Virus genome (UHGV): UHGV-1359874
DNA: 64,000 bases
Reading direction: 5' to 3' (one strand)
Source: a virus
In this document: piece after piece, positions 1 to 63,986 of the stretch
How positions within the stretch are numbered: position 1 is the stretch's first letter
Layout: each line of letters starts with the position of its first letter
Program-made: the position numbers and the translations under genes
The notes under the pieces: model-generated
What the model saw: only the letters and a program-made list of their open reading frames with translations
Database searches by the model: none
Told to the model about the DNA's origin: nothing

Positions 1-300
1 ACCAGTCGTACTGAGGAATCTGCTTTTGGTGAGGCGGCTGTGACTACTTATGAGCGTAAGACTCGTGATTGGGTTGTTGATGGTGCAGCAAAGGTTCCCT
101 ATGAGTATGGTGAGGAAGATGTTTTGACTGCGGATGAGCTGATTAAGGCTACTCAGGACCGCGAGATTTATTGGGCCACGGTTCAAAAGAATCATGATGA
201 TTATATTGCTAGTAAGAATGCCCCCAAGACGACAGACAATACAGTAAACAATATGGCTAGCCCAACTGCTAAGGTGCAGGCTGGCGCATTTAAATTCTAA
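1..300 (+). CDS. hypothetical protein, C-terminal fragment (reading frame open to window edge)
   Basis: Frame 1 is open from nt 1 through the stop at 298-300, so the ORF-track Met at 40 is probably internal. No recognisable motifs. Confidence 0.35.
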   Translation, partial: TSRTEESAFGEAAVTTYERKTRDWVVDGAAKVPYEYGEEDVLTADELIKATQDREIYWATVQKNHDDYIASKNAPKTTDNTVNNMASPTAKVQAGAFKF

Positions 301-375
301 TATAAAAGGAGGGGCAATGCCCCTCCTACCTTCTATCAAAATAACACAAAATTTTAATAAAGGATGATATAAATT

Positions 376-639
376 ATGGCAGAAATTAATCTACTCGGTA
401 TTCAGCCGCATAAGGTTAGTCGTACACTGCGAGGATATTCGGTATTTCTGTATGGTGATCCGAAATCTGGCAAGACTACAATCGCAACCAAGTTTCCTAA
501 ACATCTTCTTATTGCATTCGAGAAAGGTTATAATGCGATTCCTGGTGCAATGGCTCAGCCTGTTAATAGCTGGGCTGAGTTTAGGAAAGTTCTCCGCCAG
601 TTAAAAGACCCCAAGGTTCACGAAGTTTATGAAACGGTT
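376..639 (+). CDS. Sak4-like / RecA-superfamily recombination ATPase, exon 1
   Basis: Walker A GDPKSGKTT near the N-terminus. The ORF stops (TAA 640-642) 88 codons in, before any Walker B. The rest of the protein is found downstream at 1737-1850 and 2938-3588. Confidence 0.65.
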
Positions 640-1736
640 TAACAATTAAATACGAAAGGCGCTTTTGATTAATGGAAGCATTAGATAAAGCTATTTATGA
701 TTATCACAATACTGATAAAACAATTACTACAATTCTAAAAGAAACTGGAATTAGTAAAGCTACTTTTTATAGACATTTAGACTATAAAGAAGAATTTAGA
801 GCAAAGAAGAAAGCTCGTACTTATACTTTTAATTTTGATAAATTTAAAATTGATTCTCACGAAAAGTATTATTGGTTAGGTTTCATTGGAGCTGATGGAG
901 CTGTTGTAAAAAATACATTAAGTATTGAGCTGAAAGAAACTGATAAAGCTCATCTTGAGAAATTTAATTTATTTTTTGAAAATACAAAGACTATTGAAGA
1001 AAGGATTAATAATAATGGATGTAAATGTGTAAAAACAAATATTAACTCTTTTCAATTAGTTGAGTATTTAAAACAATATAACATTTATCAAAATAAAAGT
1101 TTAACTTATACTATTCCAATAGATAAAATTCCTGAAATATATTTAATGGACTTTATTAGAGGGTTAATTGATGGAGATGGTTGTATTAGGATCAACAATC
1201 ATCAACAGATTTCTTTAGGATTTTGTAGTGGAAATGGATATTGTGTAGAACAGTTTAAAGAAATTTTAGGAATAACAAATAAAACCACTAAAGATAAATA
1301 TACTTATCATACCCAGGTAACAGGTAATATTAAAGCAAAAGCTATTCTTGACAAAATTTATTTAAACAGTTCTGATTCAACGAGATTAGATAGAAAATAT
1401 CGTATTTATAAGACCCTTAATTGAGTAATTAATTAAGCAAATCCAGAGAATTGCTGGAAACCCCTTAGAGCTTTCTAAACTACAACGTAAGTTAAAAGCT
1501 AAACGTGAATGTTCTAAAAATTAGAAAGATTGGGCAATCAGCAGCCGAGCTTCATTATTATAATGAAGAAGGTTCAACGACTATCCATTTTGCAGATGAA
1601 ATTTCTGCTTTAGGAGTAGGGCTTTATAAAAATAAAGTGGGTGAGAATCCCTTAAATCGAAGTACTGGACTCCACGAAAGTGGATGATGATATAGTCTAC
1701 TCCCTTTAAAATATCTCGAAAGAGAGGGTATTAAGG
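640..1736 (+). mobile_element. group I intron (family A) interrupting ATPase gene, with LAGLIDADG ORF
   Basis: It starts with TAA right after an exon-terminal U. The 3' terminal block gatagtctactccctttaaaatatctcgaaagagagggtattaagg is near-identical to the 3' end of the nrdD intron (19467-19511). The block aacgactatc is also shared. It ends in G before the exon 2 start attcttgat. Confidence 0.6.
672..1424 (+). CDS. LAGLIDADG homing endonuclease (double-motif), intron-encoded
   Basis: Two LAGLIDADG motifs: YWLGFIGADGAV and FIRGLIDGDGCI. 250 aa, lying entirely inside the ATPase interruption. Confidence 0.75.
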   Translation: MEALDKAIYDYHNTDKTITTILKETGISKATFYRHLDYKEEFRAKKKARTYTFNFDKFKIDSHEKYYWLGFIGADGAVVKNTLSIELKETDKAHLEKFNLFFENTKTIEERINNNGCKCVKTNINSFQLVEYLKQYNIYQNKSLTYTIPIDKIPEIYLMDFIRGLIDGDGCIRINNHQQISLGFCSGNGYCVEQFKEILGITNKTTKDKYTYHTQVTGNIKAKAILDKIYLNSSDSTRLDRKYRIYKTLN

Positions 1737-1850
1737 ATTCTTGATACGGCTGATATTGCGTACTCATACTGTGAGAAGTACGTCTGTGCAAATGTTAAGC
1801 GCGCTGATGGCGGTGTTGGCGTTGACTCTGTTGCGGACATCCCCTACGGT
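1737..1850 (+). CDS. recombination ATPase, exon 2 (38 codons, no own start codon)
   Basis: The open frame encodes ILDTADIAYSYCEKYVCANVKRADGGVGVDSVADIPYG, a Walker-B-like hhhhD segment typical of Sak4/RecA-like ATPases. The 3' splice position comes from homology with the nrdD intron end. The 5' end of the next intron follows ggt|aaat, as in the dut intron. Confidence 0.5.
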
Positions 1851-2937
1851 AAATCTCTTGCCGCATAAAAATAGTGATATTTTATGAAAATTGTAGTAAA
1901 AACTGGAACCCTGTGATGGGAATCAGAGCGGAAGTTATGTTTTAAAAGATATAACACGCGCAACGCATAGGAAAAATAAACATTAAAGGGAGGATTGTCC
2001 TAGTATGGGAAAATCAATTATTCTAACGAAAGAGCAAGAAGAAAAAATAATTTACAATTATACCATTTTAAAATATGGTCAAAAAAGAGCTGGTGCTTTT
2101 ATTCCAGTAAGTGATTGTGTTGTAAAAAAAGTTTTAATGAAATATAATATACCTATTAAAACAATTCAAGAAACAAATGTAAACAAATATTTTATAAATC
2201 ACAATTATTTTAAAACACAGTCAGCAGATATGGCTTACTGGATAGGCATTTTAGGTTCAGATGGTTCAGTAAATAAAAATGAAAATGAAATTTATATTGA
2301 ACTTCAAAGACAGGATAGAGAACTTCTAGAAAAGCTTAATAAAAGTATTGAAAACCAAAGACCAGTAAAAGACTATGAAACAGCAAGAGGTTATGAAAAT
2401 AGTAAGATCTATTTTTATTCAAAAGAAATTAAAAAAGATTTAAAAGAGTTTAAAATAATACCGAACAAAACCTATGATAAGAATTATGGCTTTCCTTTTA
2501 AATTAAAAAAAGAATATTATCAAGATTATTTAAGAGGACTGTTTGATGGAGATGGAAGTATAAAAAAAGGAAGCTCTTTAACTTGGCAAGTTGATTCTGG
2601 GTCATTGGAAATTGTCTTAGAATTGCAAAAATTTCTTAAAGAAAAAGGTATTGAAATTGAATATACTATTTGTCCTAAAAAAAATGTTGATATTTATAGA
2701 CTTTATTGTTACGGAAAAGAAAAAATAAGCAAAATTTATAATTTATTATATACAACAGATTCTACTTTGTTTTTGGAAAGAAAGAAAAATAAATTTATAG
2801 AATATTTAAACCTTTAATGATATAGTTTCCCAAGAGACTACAATATCTCAAGTATTGAGATAAAAAGATATGCTGAACTTACATGAAAAAAGAAGTGTAA
2901 GAACTAAAGGATAAAAAACTTTTAGGATAACAAATTG
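1851..2937 (+). mobile_element. group I intron (family B) interrupting ATPase gene, with LAGLIDADG ORF
   Basis: It starts aaat after exon-terminal ggt, exactly as the dut intron does. The 3' block aaaagatatgctgaactta...aagaagtgtaagaactaaaggataaaaa...ggataacaaattg is shared with the dut intron 3' end (23001-23076). It ends in G. Confidence 0.6.
2005..2817 (+). CDS. LAGLIDADG homing endonuclease (double-motif), intron-encoded
   Basis: Motifs AYWIGILGSDGSV and YLRGLFDGDGSI. There is a GGAGG RBS (aaagggagg) upstream. 270 aa. Confidence 0.75.
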   Translation: MGKSIILTKEQEEKIIYNYTILKYGQKRAGAFIPVSDCVVKKVLMKYNIPIKTIQETNVNKYFINHNYFKTQSADMAYWIGILGSDGSVNKNENEIYIELQRQDRELLEKLNKSIENQRPVKDYETARGYENSKIYFYSKEIKKDLKEFKIIPNKTYDKNYGFPFKLKKEYYQDYLRGLFDGDGSIKKGSSLTWQVDSGSLEIVLELQKFLKEKGIEIEYTICPKKNVDIYRLYCYGKEKISKIYNLLYTTDSTLFLERKKNKFIEYLNL

Positions 2938-3588
2938 AAGGGGTACGCAATGGTTGAGCAGGAGTTTGATGAAGCCCTTCGTTCTATTGTTCAGATGGAT
3001 TATGGTCTGGTTATTATTTCTCATGCCACGGATAAAACTTTTAAGGATGAAAATGGTCAAGAGTATCAGCAGATTGTACCAACTCTTGATAAGCGTGCTC
3101 GTAAAGTTGTTAGTCGCATGACTGATATTATTGGTTATTCTCGTGCAGTAACTGATGCTGATGGTCAGCTTGTTACCAAGTTGTTCATGCGCGGTACTCC
3201 TAGATATATGGCTGGGTCCCGATTCAAGTACACGCCTGACTATATTGATTTCAATTATGAAGCCCTAACACAGGCAATCAATGAGGCCATTGATAAGCAG
3301 GCGGCTGAGGATGGAAATGAGAACTTTACCAATGAAGCTTCTAATCTATATAAACAGACTAATAATGAATTGAATTTTGATGATTTGATTCTTCAGTTTA
3401 ATGAAATGGTAAATCATTTGATCGAGTCTAATGAGGAAGATAAGTTCCTAGACTATTATCAGCCTCGGATTACAGAAATCACAGATCGGTATCTGGGTAA
3501 AGGAAATAAGGTATCTCAGTGTTCTCGTGAACAGGTTGAAGCTCTATCTCTGATTGTGGATGACCTTAAAGAGTTATGTAAGGACTAA
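2938..3588 (+). CDS. recombination ATPase, exon 3 (C-terminal 216 aa)
   Basis: Joining gives ...DIPYG|KGYAMVEQEFDEALRSIVQMDYGLVIISHATDK..., a continuous RecA-like core. The ORF track could only start it at a TTG at 2935. There is no RBS, which is consistent with an internal exon. Confidence 0.6.
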   Translation, partial: KGYAMVEQEFDEALRSIVQMDYGLVIISHATDKTFKDENGQEYQQIVPTLDKRARKVVSRMTDIIGYSRAVTDADGQLVTKLFMRGTPRYMAGSRFKYTPDYIDFNYEALTQAINEAIDKQAAEDGNENFTNEASNLYKQTNNELNFDDLILQFNEMVNHLIESNEEDKFLDYYQPRITEITDRYLGKGNKVSQCSREQVEALSLIVDDLKELCKD

Positions 3589-3600
3589 TTTAATAGATTA

Positions 3601-3641
3601 AAAGCAACTAATGTGATAAAAAGCATTAGTTGCTTTTTTTG
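3601..3641 (+). terminator. rho-independent terminator
   Basis: Hairpin aagcaactaatg / cattagttgctt followed by TTTTT. Confidence 0.6.
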
Positions 3642-3658
3642 CTTATTTATGATATAAT
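3630..3658 (+). promoter_or_regulatory. sigma-A-type promoter with extended -10 (TTGCTT-17-TGaTATAAT)
   Basis: The motif TTATGATATAATAT recurs at 20449-20463. The -35 box lies within the terminator's 3' stem. Confidence 0.5.
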
Positions 3659-16620: not shown

Positions 16621-18429
16621 ATGCAGAATATTATTAAGAGAGATGGCACAACTCAGCCATTTAATAAATTTAAAATTGTAGATGCGGTATTAGCCGCATT
16701 CAAGGCTGTAGATGGAGACATTTCAGAATATGCTGAAGTTAAGGCGGGTAATATCGCTGATTTCATTGAAGAAAAGGCCGAAAAGAAACAGCTTACTATT
16801 GAAGAAATTCAGGATTATGTCGAACGTGGTCTTTCCAGCACTAAACGGAAGGATGTAGCTAAAGCATTCATTCTTTATAGAGAAAAGCGTAATCAAGCAA
16901 GAGGAAATGTAATTGATGATGCAGTTATGGAATTGCTTGATGGTACGAATGAATATTGGAAAACTGAAAATTCTAATAAAGATGCGGATGTTGTAACTGT
17001 CCAACGTGATTATCTAGCTGGTATTATTAGTACAGATATTAGCCGTCGCAAGATTCTTACATCCGACATTTGTGAAGCACATGATGCTGGTATTATTCAT
17101 GAACATGACATGGACTATCTCGCACAAAATGCTCTTTCAAACTGTTGTCTTATTAATGCAGAAGATATGTTGCAGAATGGCACTGTTATTAATGGTATCC
17201 GCATTGACCCTCAACATCGTTTATCTACAGCTACTACTGTATTGACCCAGATTATCACTGCAGTAGCCAGCTCACAGTACGGTGGTTGTACCATTTCTCT
17301 GACTCATCTAGCTCCCTATGTGCGAATGAGTTATAAAGATTATATTAGAAAATATATTGATTGGGGATTCGATACTGAGAAGGCAAAAGAATTCGCTAAG
17401 AAGGATTTAGCCAAGGAAATTCGTGATTCGGTTCAAACTTTTAATTATCAGATTAATTCTATGAGCACAACTAACGGTCAGGCCCCTTTCCTCTCCGTTT
17501 GTATGTATCTAGGTGAAACGGATGAATATAAACCAGAACTAGCTATGCTTATCGAAGAATTCCTTCGTCAACGTATTCTTGGTATGAAGAATGAAAAGGG
17601 AGTATATATTACACCCGCTTTTCCGAAATTACTTTATGTACTTGAAGAAGACAATATTCATGCGGATAGCAAGTATTTTTACTTAACAGAACTTGCCGCA
17701 GAATGTACAGCAAAACGTCTTGTTCCTGATTATATTTCAGAAAAAGTTATGAAGCAAAACAAGATTAATCCTACTACTGGCAAAGGTGAAGCTTATCCAT
17801 GTATGGGATGTAGATCTTTCTTAACTCCAGACCGCACCACTAAGAATTATGCCCGCGCATTAAATTATAAAGAGGGTCAGGGGAAATATTATGGTCGCTT
17901 TAATATGGGTGTTACTACAATTAATCTTCCTGATATTGCATTTTCTTCAAAAGGTGATTTTGAACTGTTTTGGAAACTTTTTGATGAGCGTACTGAACTT
18001 TGTCATAAAGGTTTAAAAGTTCGTATCAAGAGACTTGAAAATGTAACTTCTGATGTCGCACCTATTCTTTGGCAGGATGGAGCATTTGCTAGACTTAATA
18101 AACATGAATCTATTAAAGAACTGCTTCATCATGGATATGCAACTGCTTCTCTTGGTTATGCTGGACTTTATGAATGCGTAAAGTATATGACTGGTCATTC
18201 TCATTCAGATGGCGGCGTAGGCGAACTCTTTGGCTTAGAGGTAATGCAAGCACTTAATGATAAATGTAATGAATGGAAACGGCAAGAAGATATTGATTAT
18301 TCTCTTTACGGCTCTCCTATCGAGTCAACTACTTACAAATTTGCTAAATGTTTAAAGAAGCGATTTGGTGATGATATTTTTATTAAACTTGACGGTTTTG
18401 ATAGAAATTATATAACTAATAGCTACCAT
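16621..18429 (+). CDS. nrdD: anaerobic ribonucleoside-triphosphate reductase NrdD, exon 1
   Basis: The class III RNR body ends ...YITNSYH and is followed directly by TAA. It lacks the C-terminal Zn-ribbon and the glycyl-radical motif. Those are found at 19512-19898. Confidence 0.75.
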
Positions 18430-19511
18430 TAATTGGATAGTGGCTTAATATAGTGATATATTAAGAAAACCTTGTGAACTCTTTTAGAGGTGTCAGATTA
18501 AAAATCTGGCTAACGGTTCAGAAGTAAGAAATTACAATATGAGTAAGGGAACCTAAGTCTTTAATAAAATAAAGATATGGTAATACCGTGCTAAGTTTGT
18601 TTTGTTCAATAATAAAAAAATAAAGAAAGGAGGAAAAAAATGGGTAGACCGCCTAAATATATCATTAATATTGGAAATATTTATGATGATTATAAATGTA
18701 TAGACATCATTCAAGAAACAACTGGTCAAAAAAGAAAAAAATATATTATGAAATGTCAAAAATGCGAAAAAGTAAAATCTATGTTAGGTTCAACAGTTGG
18801 ATTGCATAAAGGAACAAAACATAAAAGCTGTGGAAAAGGATTAGGAATTACTTATGATGAATATTTTTATAAACGTTGGAAATCAATGAGAGCTAGAACT
18901 TCTCCAAATTTTTGGAATAGAGAAAATTATTATGATAGAGGTATTAACAGTGATGCTTTTGAAAGTTTCATAGATTTCTATAACGCAATGTATGAATCAT
19001 GGAAAGCTCATGTAGCCATCTATGGAGAGCATGATACTTCTTTAGAACGTATAGATGTTGACAAGCCTTATACACCAGAAAATTGTTGTTGGATATGTCT
19101 TGATGAACAAAGAGGAAATTTACAAAAGACAAATTATTTTACAGTTGAAAATATTGAAACTGGAGAAATAGAGTATTGTAAAAATGCTTTACAATATACT
19201 TATGACCATCCAGAAATTCCTCATAGATACATATATGATTTATTGAAGTATAACAGAACTTATAAAGGTAAAAAATTTACTAAAATAACTAAGCAAGATT
19301 TTGAAAAATATAAAAAATCTCTAATTATTGAACAAACTTAAAAGTGTAACGACTATCGAAAGCCCATTATAGAAGAAAAATCTATAACTGGAAGTGAGTA
19401 GAGTAGTTCATTATTGAACGAAGTGCAAGGATTCTATAATTCGGTAACAGAATAATAGAATATGAGATAGTCTATTCCCTCTTAAATATCAAGAAATTGA
19501 GGGTATAAAAG
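18430..19511 (+). mobile_element. group I intron (family A) in nrdD, with endonuclease-like ORF
   Basis: It starts with TAA after an exon-terminal U. The 3' end gagatagtctattccctcttaaatatcaagaaattgagggtataaaag is homologous to the ATPase intron-1 3' end. It shares aacgactatc. It ends in G before attcctgtt. Confidence 0.6.
18640..19341 (+). CDS. intron-encoded putative homing endonuclease (Cys-rich N-terminus + HNH_3-like C-terminal motif)
   Basis: N-terminal YKCIDII...KCQKCEK resembles the Cys-rich module of the Vsr-like HE paralogs. The C-terminus has LERIDVDKPYTPENCCWICLDEQRGN, resembling the degenerate HNH_3 (hIDhDxxYxPxNCRW) motif. Strong RBS aaaggagg. Confidence 0.45.
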   Translation: MGRPPKYIINIGNIYDDYKCIDIIQETTGQKRKKYIMKCQKCEKVKSMLGSTVGLHKGTKHKSCGKGLGITYDEYFYKRWKSMRARTSPNFWNRENYYDRGINSDAFESFIDFYNAMYESWKAHVAIYGEHDTSLERIDVDKPYTPENCCWICLDEQRGNLQKTNYFTVENIETGEIEYCKNALQYTYDHPEIPHRYIYDLLKYNRTYKGKKFTKITKQDFEKYKKSLIIEQT

Positions 19512-19898
19512 ATTCCTGTTTTTGAGAAAATTGATGCGTTCTCTAAGTTGGCTATTGAAGCTAAATTCCAGACCCTTTCTCCAGGGGGCGCAATTAGTTA
19601 CATTGAGACGCCAAATATGCAGGGAAATATTCCAGCAGTATTATCTGTAATTCAGTTCATTTACGACAATATTATGTATGCTGAATTAAATACCAAGAGT
19701 GATTATTGCCAAGAGTGCGGTTATGATGGAGAAATCCTCATTGATGAGAATATGGAATGGTATTGTCCTAATTGTGGCAATCGTGACCATTCAACTCTTA
19801 ATGTTGCACGACGCACCTGCGGCTACATAGGGTCTAACTTCTGGAATTATGGCCGCACCCAAGAGATAAAAGATAGAGTGGTACATCTTGATGACTAA
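19512..19898 (+). CDS. nrdD: NrdD exon 2 (Zn-ribbon + glycyl radical domain)
   Basis: The open frame has no start codon. It encodes IPVFEK...CQECGYDGEI...CPNCGN (a Cx2C...Cx2C ribbon) and RRTCGYIG (the glycyl radical motif). Joined product ...TNSYH|IPVFEK... Confidence 0.65.
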   Translation: MPVFEKIDAFSKLAIEAKFQTLSPGGAISYIETPNMQGNIPAVLSVIQFIYDNIMYAELNTKSDYCQECGYDGEILIDENMEWYCPNCGNRDHSTLNVARRTCGYIGSNFWNYGRTQEIKDRVVHLDD

Positions 19899-62399: not shown

Positions 62400-63986
62400 T
62401 TATCCCTGTGCTTCAATATTTTTTATAGTCTTTTCTGACTTCTGATCGTTTTCCTTCTCTGGACGACCGCCTTCAGGATTATCCGATTTAGTTGTCTCCG
62501 CAGATTGTGTCTGATCTGTTTGCTGCTTATTCGCCGCATTGCGATTCGTCAAATAATCAGAATTCATAGTATTACTACTTAGCGGAGGTACCATCAATTC
62601 AACGAGATTTAAAACATTATTCTCGAAATATGCGTCTGCAAGGATTGAACTCTGAGACTGTCCAAGTGCCAGCTGAGGAAGGATTTTTGAACCGCCAATA
62701 GTAGATTGCTCTTTATATAACTTAACTAATTCTTTATAATTATAAATAGTAGTTCCAAGAATTTGAACTTTAAAAGAATATTTTTTAACATTTGTATTAA
62801 AATGTTGAATAACCATATTTAAGAATTGCTCAAACTGTTGAATCAAATTATATAAAGTAGCTTCATCATTTAAAACTGACTTTTCCAATGCAATATTGCC
62901 ATCAGTATTAAATTGCATTTGTGAAATACCAGCTTGGTCATAAACAGCTGATTTAACTCTATCCATACTTTGATCTGCGGCGGTTGTAGCAGAAGTGCTA
63001 GACATATCCGCAACATCAGTATCGGCAAAAGTAGTTAAAACATCAATACCAATAGCTCTACCTAACATACGAACCGCATTATTATGTAAAGCTTGTGCCT
63101 CATCAACATCAAAAACCAAGTCGCCATTTTTATCTATTGGCATCTTTTGAATAATTATTTTTAATAACTCTTGTTCCATCTTTTTGCGATCAAGCCCTTG
63201 CATATCATCTAAATCAATGATAGCAGGTATAACCGCAATCAACATTGGAAAATCTTCACCGTTAATATTAAACTTAATAGTTAAGTCAACATCTAACATA
63301 TACCAGCCACTAGTATCACCAGGAAAATCAGGAATTAATTTATTATTCTTATATAAATTATATCCTTTTCTAAACTCATCAGGAAATACTTTTAGCATTT
63401 TATCACGTTGAATGTTATCTTTAAAATAATCATCAAAATAACGCATATTAAATTCAACAACAGGTCTACCATCTGCAGAAGTAAATCTTGAGCGACAATA
63501 CTTCATTGGTAATTCCTGAACCACAAATCTTTCTTTGCGGTTAATGAGATACCCATAGTAGCAACCATTGCGAATAACTTTTAATGCAGTTTCACCTAAA
63601 AACTGTTTAACTTGACTGTTATCTAAATACTTTAAAATATTATTAAAATCACCAATTATTTTTTCATTTTTAGGTGGATTCTTAGCAGAAGTATCAATAT
63701 AAGTAGTTACTTTCCAATCATAACGATACATATAAGCCATATATCTACATAATCTATTGTAAATACCGCTAACTCGATAAAAGTAATTAGATATATCCCG
63801 CATCTTTAAGATATTTCTATCATTAATTGCACGCAATACTTCTTTCTTATCCCCTAAGTTAGGATTAGTATTTCTTAACTCACTTAGGTTATAAACCGCA
63901 TCACTTAAAGGACGGATGCCAACATTAATCTTGGAAAAGTCAACAGGAGTAAATCCATGTTCAGGTGTTTCATTATAAGGCATCAT
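62400..63986 (-). CDS. putative portal protein
   Basis: 528 aa, the first large gene of the head operon upstream of scaffold and capsid. AAAAAGG RBS. The frame is open to the window edge. Confidence 0.45.
   Translation of the reverse strand: MMPYNETPEHGFTPVDFSKINVGIRPLSDAVYNLSELRNTNPNLGDKKEVLRAINDRNILKMRDISNYFYRVSGIYNRLCRYMAYMYRYDWKVTTYIDTSAKNPPKNEKIIGDFNNILKYLDNSQVKQFLGETALKVIRNGCYYGYLINRKERFVVQELPMKYCRSRFTSADGRPVVEFNMRYFDDYFKDNIQRDKMLKVFPDEFRKGYNLYKNNKLIPDFPGDTSGWYMLDVDLTIKFNINGEDFPMLIAVIPAIIDLDDMQGLDRKKMEQELLKIIIQKMPIDKNGDLVFDVDEAQALHNNAVRMLGRAIGIDVLTTFADTDVADMSSTSATTAADQSMDRVKSAVYDQAGISQMQFNTDGNIALEKSVLNDEATLYNLIQQFEQFLNMVIQHFNTNVKKYSFKVQILGTTIYNYKELVKLYKEQSTIGGSKILPQLALGQSQSSILADAYFENNVLNLVELMVPPLSSNTMNSDYLTNRNAANKQQTDQTQSAETTKSDNPEGGRPEKENDQKSEKTIKNIEAQG

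Follow-up and report, generated by a model that had tools for sequence, protein, structure and literature searches.

Is a reading frame that lies in three pieces still one gene? The question arises at positions 376-3588 of a 64,000-nucleotide (nt) stretch of the virus genome UHGV-1359874 (the whole stretch analysed, hereafter the window). There, an initial annotation made from the sequence alone described a recombination ATPase gene, split into three exons by two intron-like insertions. Follow-up analysis indicates that the locus is very probably one Sak4-like (AAA_24, SPbeta YorG-like) recombination ATPase gene, interrupted by two mobile group I introns. This overall reading, three exons and two group I introns with genes for LAGLIDADG homing endonucleases, draws support from gene anatomy, from RNA folds, and from the alleles of related phages. 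Established features are the gene's anatomy, the precise sites of insertion, the way in which the ribozymes fold, and the presence of the introns in some relatives but not in others.

The three exons and their joined product

Exon 1 (376-639; on the plus strand, as are the other exons, the introns, and the intron genes) begins with ATG and encodes 88 codons, including the Walker A motif GDPKSGKT. Its frame indeed ends there, at an in-frame TAA (640-642) that follows directly. Exon 2 (1737-1850) is an open frame of 114 nt, or 38 codons (ILDTADIAY...DIPYG), that encodes a Walker B-like segment; as described initially, it has no start codon, and it also lacks a ribosome-binding site (RBS). Exon 3 (2938-3588) comprises 216 codons (2938-3585; KGYAMVEQEF...ELCKD) and a stop codon (3586-3588), and encodes the remainder of the AAA_24 domain along with a carboxyl-terminal extension of about 120 amino acids (aa). 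It too is devoid of ATG and Shine-Dalgarno sequence; an open reading frame (ORF) finder offers only an in-frame TTG at 2935.

Joining the three exons yields the continuous 342-aa protein of the Sak4/AAA_24 type that had been proposed, a conclusion borne out by Pfam, by PHROG, and by gapless alignments. The joined protein matches the full length of PF13479 (AAA_24) in one stretch: residues 20-222 align with profile positions 2-195 of 195 (E 1.8e-38), at 132.8 bits against a cut-off of 27. This match crosses both junctions, takes in exon 2, and contains both the Walker A and the Walker B-like motifs. The joined protein also matches phrog_124, 'Sak4-like ssDNA annealing protein' (ssDNA, single-stranded DNA; E 7e-52), and a role in ssDNA annealing is predicted from this family match. 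Alignments with uninterrupted homologues, at 52-94% identity, are gapless at both junctions. Homologues number in the thousands in a large protein collection; among the best 120 listed, every one is uninterrupted, with a length of 339-348 aa and an identity of 70-94%. (The joined 342-aa protein itself was absent, by exact look-up, from a collection of 15 billion proteins, and megablast of 300-3650 against a phage collection gave no match.)

Intronless alleles provide a closer comparison. The joined coding sequence is 1029 nt long, exactly as in the intronless loci L002 (86% nucleotide identity) and L127 (97.8%, ungapped), and 3 of 342 residues distinguish the intronless 342-aa protein P0130 from the joined product. 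This exact length and gapless register therefore are not due to chance. Base composition sets the inserts apart: they contain 28% (1097 nt) and 26% (1087 nt) G+C, versus 39-50% for the exons. Codon differences from L002 are mainly synonymous, with ratios to non-synonymous ones of 31:6, 14:5, and 65:9 for exons 1, 2, and 3, respectively. Thus, all three exons, including that of 114 nt, are under purifying selection; because of its 14:5 ratio, exon 2 is seen to evolve as coding sequence even though it is untranslatable alone. The window and its relatives share one gene order: YorF-like, this gene, YorH-like, and DnaB.

Some further features of the gene deserve mention. The carboxyl-terminal extension (3043-3588; joined residues ~223-342) is conserved in gut-phage relatives and has no counterpart among Pfam families. 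In local alignments, similarity to both SPbeta YorG and an Enterococcus phage protein likewise continues to about residue 340. A hairpin with a U run at 3600-3641, right after the exon 3 stop codon (AAAGCAACUAAUG...CAUUAGUUGCUUU), appears by eye to be a candidate intrinsic terminator; a similar GC-rich hairpin, also noted by eye, lies at about 309-326, upstream of the gene.

Two introns and their ribozymes

Intron 1 (640-1736; 1097 nt, beginning UAA and ending with G1736) is an IA-type group I intron. The intronless loci L127 and L002, as well as L128, lack exactly this segment. Its catalytic core (1425-1724) extends from the P2 3' strand to P9 and includes the P, Q, R, and S elements. In a search limited to 1425-1745, the Rfam group I intron model RF00028 aligns with 1425-1724 over model positions 32-253 of 253, truncated at the 5' end, with a score of 48.1 bits (E 1.9e-11). 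The score remains below the gathering value, and the 5' part is left unaligned, because an ORF separates P1 and P2 from the core; longer searches missed the core. Between P7 and P3', some 80 nt are inserted (P7.1/P7.2), as is typical of subgroup IA.

The substrate helix P1 of intron 1 pairs the exon end GGUU (636-639) with the guide GACC (1412-1415), such that U639 lies opposite G1412. An extension of P1, formed by UAAAUACG at 647-654 and by 1401-1408, contributes 8 base pairs (bp) and closes a loop of about 745 nt that holds the endonuclease gene. Position 1401-1408 is the best duplex partner, within intron 1, for the 5' splice site region 630-671, and the same helix forms in the minimum free energy (MFE) fold of the ORF-deleted intron. 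The P2 hairpin (1416-1422/1431-1437) follows the guide directly; sequence and fold together define this whole segment (1401-1437). A guide within the 32 nt upstream of the ORF was considered and rejected, the guide having been found at the ORF 3' end.

The intron 1 homing endonuclease gene (672-1424) encodes 250 aa, including an amino-terminal region that resembles a helix-turn-helix, and is preceded by its own RBS (GAAAGG, 655-660). The gene occupies the P1 loop; its final codons run into the guide sequence and P2. The protein contains the motifs LGFIGADG and IRGLIDGDG, and matches PF14528 (LAGLIDADG_3; E 4e-10, 40.2 bits, cut-off 22.5) and phrog_4645 (E 9e-42). Cores like that of intron 1 are found in 522 phage records; Staphylococcus Twort-like phages predominate, and phages of Vibrio, Bacillus, Enterococcus, and Lactococcus are represented as well.

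Intron 2 (1851-2937; 1087 nt, with an in-frame stop codon at 1866-1868 and G2937 as its last base) belongs to a group I family that Rfam does not see. It is absent from L127 and L002, whereas the same site is occupied in L128, L011, and L093. Its guide (1853-1863), defined from sequence and the MFE fold, has two parts. GCCG (1860-1863) forms P1 with the exon 2 end CGGU (1847-1850), placing U1850 opposite G1860; AUCUCUU (1853-1859) forms a 7-bp P10 with the opening nucleotides of exon 3 (2938-2944).

The intron 2 core is in two halves. The 5' half (1864-1974) comprises P2 (1864-1870 with 1880-1886), the P3 5' strand, P4, P5, P6/P6a, and the 5' strands of P7 and P7.1; it is 80-88% identical in nucleotide sequence to many copies in IMG/VR. 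The 3' half (2826-2937) comprises the P7.1 3' strand, P3', P8 (2844-2851 with 2855-2862), P7', P9, P9.1, and the terminal G2937. The helices that span the halves are P3 (6 bp, 1891-1896 with 2838-2843), P7 (1965-1969 with 2869-2873), and P7.1 (1970-1974 with 2826-2830). Between them, in the P7.1 loop, lies the homing endonuclease gene (2005-2817; 270 aa; RBS AGGGAGG at about 1987-1993), whose product contains the motifs IGILGSDG and LRGLFDGDG and matches PF14528 (E 1e-13, 51.8 bits, cut-off 22.5) and phrog_4645 (E 3e-36). A placement of this ORF in the P8 loop was rejected on the basis of the family alignment, which puts it in the P7.1 loop.

That alignment came from relatives collected with a 17-nt pattern, taken from the 3' part of intron 2 and lying in P7'. 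At least 120 IMG/VR loci were found, nearly all of which resemble both non-coding halves of intron 2 as well as an intron in the window's dut gene (described below), typically at 70-90% identity. Many copies are compact, with about 215 nt and no ORF (for example, L036:1140-1357). A MAFFT alignment (A2) was made of 34 sequences: 32 copies, the dut intron core, and ORF-deleted intron 2. The fold derived on A2 follows the group I order with its P3/P7 pseudoknot: P3-P4-P5-P6/P6a-P7-P7.1-P3'-P8-P7'-P9-P9.1. Standard pairs occupy 97.1% of the cells in this fold, versus 29-44% after the partners are slid by 1-3 columns. Compensatory changes, on both sides of the pair, are present for 36 of the 51 pairs, and none of 500 shuffles reached the observed values. 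Every helix is formed by ORF-deleted intron 2. The group I status of intron 2 thus is supported by a covariation-supported fold, not by a family covariance model.

The family is present also in 28 isolate phage records, mostly unannotated, including Listeria phage LIS04, Clostridioides phage phiCD211, and a crAss-like phage. Its 3' end (GAUAACAAAUUG, P9 plus P9.1) presumably resembles the Twort orf142-I2 ribozyme. Locus L036 (638-1704) contains three group I introns in about 1.1 kb: two RF00028 matches, weak at 638-810 and strong at 1486-1704, flank a copy of the intron 2 family (1162-1348). Loci L015 and L085 are similar. With several introns packed into about 1.1 kb, very short exons therefore are common in IMG/VR phages such as L036.

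How are the two inserts related? The initial annotation assigned a double-motif LAGLIDADG protein to each, and both assignments hold, with PF14528 above threshold in each case and an acidic residue in each of the two motifs, as in monomeric enzymes of this class. It also termed the inserts unrelated. This is correct for the ribozyme parts, which have no nucleotide similarity and represent different families, but not for the endonucleases: these are homologues, with 35% identity across 127 aa (E 6e-19), and both belong to phrog_4645. LAGLIDADG cleavage activity of both proteins is a prediction from their sequences.

A further proposal was that the ends of the two inserts match those of interruptions elsewhere in the window, in nrdD and dut, respectively. 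For the 3' ends this is so: 1687-1734 in intron 1 is 81% identical to 19462-19509 in the nrdD insert, and 2861-2932 in intron 2 is 85% identical to 23000-23070 in the dut intron. The likeness of the 5' ends amounts to only 3-4 bases.

The nrdD gene (anaerobic ribonucleotide reductase) is cut after ...NSYH, where the upstream exon ends CAU at 18429, and resumes in frame at 19512. Its insert (18430-19511; about 1082 nt) starts UAAUUGG and ends with G19511, and contains an HNH-type ORF (18640-19341; phrog_374) with R- and S-like elements (GUAACGACUAUCG, GAGAUAGUCUA) downstream. The dut gene (dUTPase) has exons at 21471-21707 and 23077-23274, with the break within the GVID motif. The intervening 1369-nt intron (21708-23076), of the intron 2 family, carries in its P1 loop an ORF (21885-22886) for a 333-aa endonuclease (phrog_559, phrog_374). 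Its P1 is a perfect 6 bp: GUCGGU (21702-21707) with GCCGAC (22863-22868).

Insertion sites, alleles, and rival explanations

At both introns, the 5' exon ends with a U opposite a guide G, and the intron ends with G. Junction 2 could be shifted by 1-2 bases on sequence alone (an AA repeat); the position given here was chosen because only there does U precede the intron and G end it. An in-frame stop codon is met 0 codons from the 5' splice site in intron 1 (640-642) and 5 codons from it in intron 2 (1866-1868). Such nearby stops have been linked to ribosome stalling that aids intron folding (PMC3984707).

The exons bear a signature at these junctions. Across the 1029 positions, intronless L127 and the joined exons disagree at 23, and 8 of these 23 lie within 10 nt of the junctions (binomial P 1.5e-6). 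They are exactly the differences through which the P1 pairings arise. At site 88/89, the intron-bearing sequence is GGTT, versus AATA, AATC, or CCTA in intronless alleles; at site 126/127, TACGGT in the intron-bearing window, L128, and L011 is replaced by TATGGC or TATGGT in intronless alleles. (In L127 the two sites read GAAACAATA|ATTCTTGATACGG and CCCTATGGC|AAGGGATATTCA, respectively.) In L011, the 3' exon opens with AAAGGUU where the window has AAGGGGU, and the guide is AAUCUUU rather than AUCUCUU; P10 is retained. Either co-conversion in homing or selection for guide pairing would produce such a signature, which also fixes the splice sites independently.

Relatives are polymorphic for introns at three sites of the Sak4-like gene: near-identical phages carry from zero to at least two, in varying combinations. 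L127 has the gene without any intron, whereas L128 and L129 have intron 2 together with an intron at a third site, and no intron 1. More diverged Sak4-like genes, in L011 and L093, have intron-2-like introns at the identical DIPYG|KGY site. The third-site intron (L128:3860-4968; also in L129) interrupts codon 48 in phase 1, following GCGU at the exon end and closing with AAAUG; the window lacks it (site 516|517). It has R- and S-like elements (AAUCGACUAUUC, GUGAUAUAGUCAG) and encodes a 279-aa protein for which the sole LAGLIDADG evidence is a precomputed 'faint' Pfam match. RF00028 gave no match to this intron in L128, at E up to 1.

The same polymorphism can be read from protein lengths in the 90%-identity cluster around the closest homologue. 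Here are intact 342-aa proteins; 212-aa exon 3 products; 284-aa products that start at M59; and the 88-aa exon 1 product P0121, identical on 34 contigs. Also present are products of 49-50 aa, in which ...KHLLIA is followed by SN or SSN and a stop, and a 73-aa product that ends DIPYGKSLAA and represents read-through into intron 2. The possibility of an assembly artefact was rejected, the same exon/intron arrangement being present in independent samples.

The phage represents an uncultured lineage of the human gut, in which genomes measure roughly 130-150 kb. Positions 62400-63986 encode a 528-aa protein, named 'portal protein' in its Enterococcus phage matches; its identity is 59% with a 'Bacteriophage sp.' record from human faeces, 36% with phage Phass-1, and 31% with Enterococcus phage VRE9.

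In the favoured model, each transcribed intron would fold into a ribozyme whose guide pairs with the upstream exon end (P1, with its U-G wobble). External guanosine would cut the 5' splice site, and the freed exon would attack the bond after the intron's terminal G; in intron 2, the 7-bp P10 would aid this second step. The product would be the continuous 1029-nt frame, translated to the 342-aa protein. The stop codons at or just inside each intron would halt ribosomes there. The LAGLIDADG genes are free-standing, with their own RBSs, in peripheral loops: L1 in intron 1 and L7.1 in intron 2. Their products presumably cut intronless alleles of co-infecting relatives, the repair of which would copy the intron in (homing).

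Several points weigh against this model. At its gathering threshold, RF00028 finds nothing in the whole window, the intron 1 score being 1.9 bits under the gathering score of 50. An Rfam E-value scan of 560-3020 likewise returned no RF00028 match, only chance snoRNA-like ones. The proposed check with the group I model is weaker than was anticipated: the intron 1 core was recovered when searched alone, and intron 2 was never matched. Nor was its family: RF00028 found no match in the dut intron core (22880-23080), nor in intron 2 family copies in nine IMG/VR loci, nor in an ORF-less copy alone, at E up to 10. (The nine loci did give strong RF00028 matches, up to 100 bits, to other introns like intron 1.) The exon pairing in P1 is only 4 bp in each of introns 1 and 2. 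In alignment A2, P7 (GCAUA/UAUGC) is invariant and so has no covariation support; it is uninformative in this respect, partly because the collecting pattern lies in P7'. The MAFFT row for intron 2 is one column off register in P3, for which the pairing was checked by hand. Finally, we infer the splicing of both introns from comparative evidence: their removal restores the frame.

Might the gene instead be dead, or truly split? The inserts then would be free-standing endonuclease cassettes, unspliced, and the fragments would be either non-functional or separate polypeptides. Split phage genes that work as separate polypeptides are known elsewhere, gene callers do annotate the 88-aa and 212-aa pieces separately, and Rfam at its curated threshold reports no intron. 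However, exon 2 has neither start codon nor RBS and exon 3 has no RBS; in each insert, some 300 non-coding nt adopt the fold of a conserved group I core; the exons are under purifying selection, in exact register with intact alleles; and their ends show adaptation to the guides. A dead or split gene is accordingly highly improbable. That the inserts are inteins or group II introns has a negligible chance of being correct. LAGLIDADG endonucleases are found also inside inteins, yet here a stop codon comes after each exon end (640-642, 1866-1868), hundreds of bases in each insert are non-coding, and the endonuclease genes have their own RBSs and are unfused to the exons. Pfam reveals no Hint or reverse transcriptase domain, and Rfam no group II match. 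The in-frame stops, the absence of Hint, and ORFs for LAGLIDADG proteins rather than reverse transcriptase together rule out both kinds of element.

A subtler alternative accepts the introns but holds that splicing is not always constitutive: some transcripts would skip exon 2, giving an in-frame 304-aa protein without the Walker B-like segment. Exon 2 is 38 whole codons, and skipping between neighbouring group I introns is documented in PMC11878797 for Twort orf142 and for a gene of phage SIOphi (named as terminase in one place there and as polymerase in another). However, introns 1 and 2 are of different families with different guides, the intron 2 P10 pairs with its own guide and not with that of intron 1, and nothing in the sequence demands skipping. 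Such skipping seems quite unlikely. A set of wider proposals is unlikely as well, taken jointly: an exon 2-less Sak4 isoform made by regulated or alternative splicing, or a GTP- or translation-dependent splicing switch on recombination; and, as a separate matter, the standing of the intron 2/dut family as its own group I subgroup.

Significance and comparison with known systems

Group I introns with homing endonucleases, even two or three per phage gene with short exons between them, are already well known. What is new is modest: the Sak4-like and dut hosts, the LAGLIDADG enzymes, the polymorphism at three sites, and the size of an intron family unseen by Rfam.

The practical consequences are several. 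Automatic annotation turns this essential gene into unrelated fragments of 88 and 212 aa plus two endonucleases, and makes the same error on dozens of related gut-phage contigs; recognition of the introns restores a complete Sak4-like gene. An abundant family of phage introns that is invisible to the standard model constitutes a gap in Rfam. The alleles form a natural homing series, with zero to at least two introns, three sites, and co-converted or adapted flanks. They thus offer material for studies of homing, endonuclease specificity, and intron-mediated competition between phages. And a recombination gene, together with the dUTPase gene in the same window, joins the hosts of phage group I introns as listed in PMC11878797.

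The closest parallels are in the Herelleviridae, as described in the same survey (PMC11878797). Twort orf142 has three group I introns and nrdE has two (citing Landthaler & Shub 1999), and DNA polymerase and terminase genes of Bastillevirinae have two or three. As in the window, these genes contain several IA-type introns each, short exons, and endonuclease genes in peripheral loops. The survey also notes that phage introns with ORFs often give partial Rfam or GISSD matches, the ORF splitting the core, and that the models miss phage variants. The partial and missed Rfam matches reported here follow this pattern. The hosts are different: those named in the survey are genes for DNA polymerase, terminase, ribonucleotide reductase, and thymidylate synthase, whereas here the host is Sak4-like AAA_24. 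The terms Sak4, recombin-, ATPase, and dUTP are absent from the searched part of its catalogue of split phage genes. The endonucleases differ as well: both are LAGLIDADG proteins here, a class that is uncommon in phage introns and accounts for one of six intron-encoded protein families in the survey. Phage introns mostly carry GIY-YIG, HNH, PD-(D/E)xK, or EDxHD enzymes, according to a review (PMC3984707).

Similarity extends to the RNA. The intron 1 core resembles elements in 245 Staphylococcus phage records, and shares the canonical P, Q, R, and S elements with RF00028. Introns of the intron 2 family depart from the RF00028 type: P7 is GCAUA/UAUGC rather than GACUA/UAGUC, and P7.1 is a single hairpin. 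In phage T4, intron ORFs occupy the P6 or P9.1 loops; those of the Sak4-gene introns occupy L1 and L7.1. Other traits are common to both. The T4 introns of td, nrdB, and nrdD (sunY), of subgroup IA2, interrupt genes of nucleotide metabolism, and nrdD is interrupted in this window too; they also have a short P1, P7.1/P7.2 between P7 and P3', and in-frame stops near the 5' splice site. The T4 introns undergo homing with co-conversion of flanking exon sequence (PMC3984707). The td endonuclease is of the GIY-YIG class (PMC11878797), in contrast to the LAGLIDADG enzymes here.

Among annotated members of its own family, the joined protein comes closest to that of Enterococcus phage VRE9_2, which is Sak4-like (51% identity), and to SPbeta YorG (33%), and the gene order YorF, YorG-like, YorH-like, DnaB is common to the window and its relatives. 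These two annotated relatives, and the best 120 homologues listed, are uninterrupted, whereas the copy in the window is split twice.

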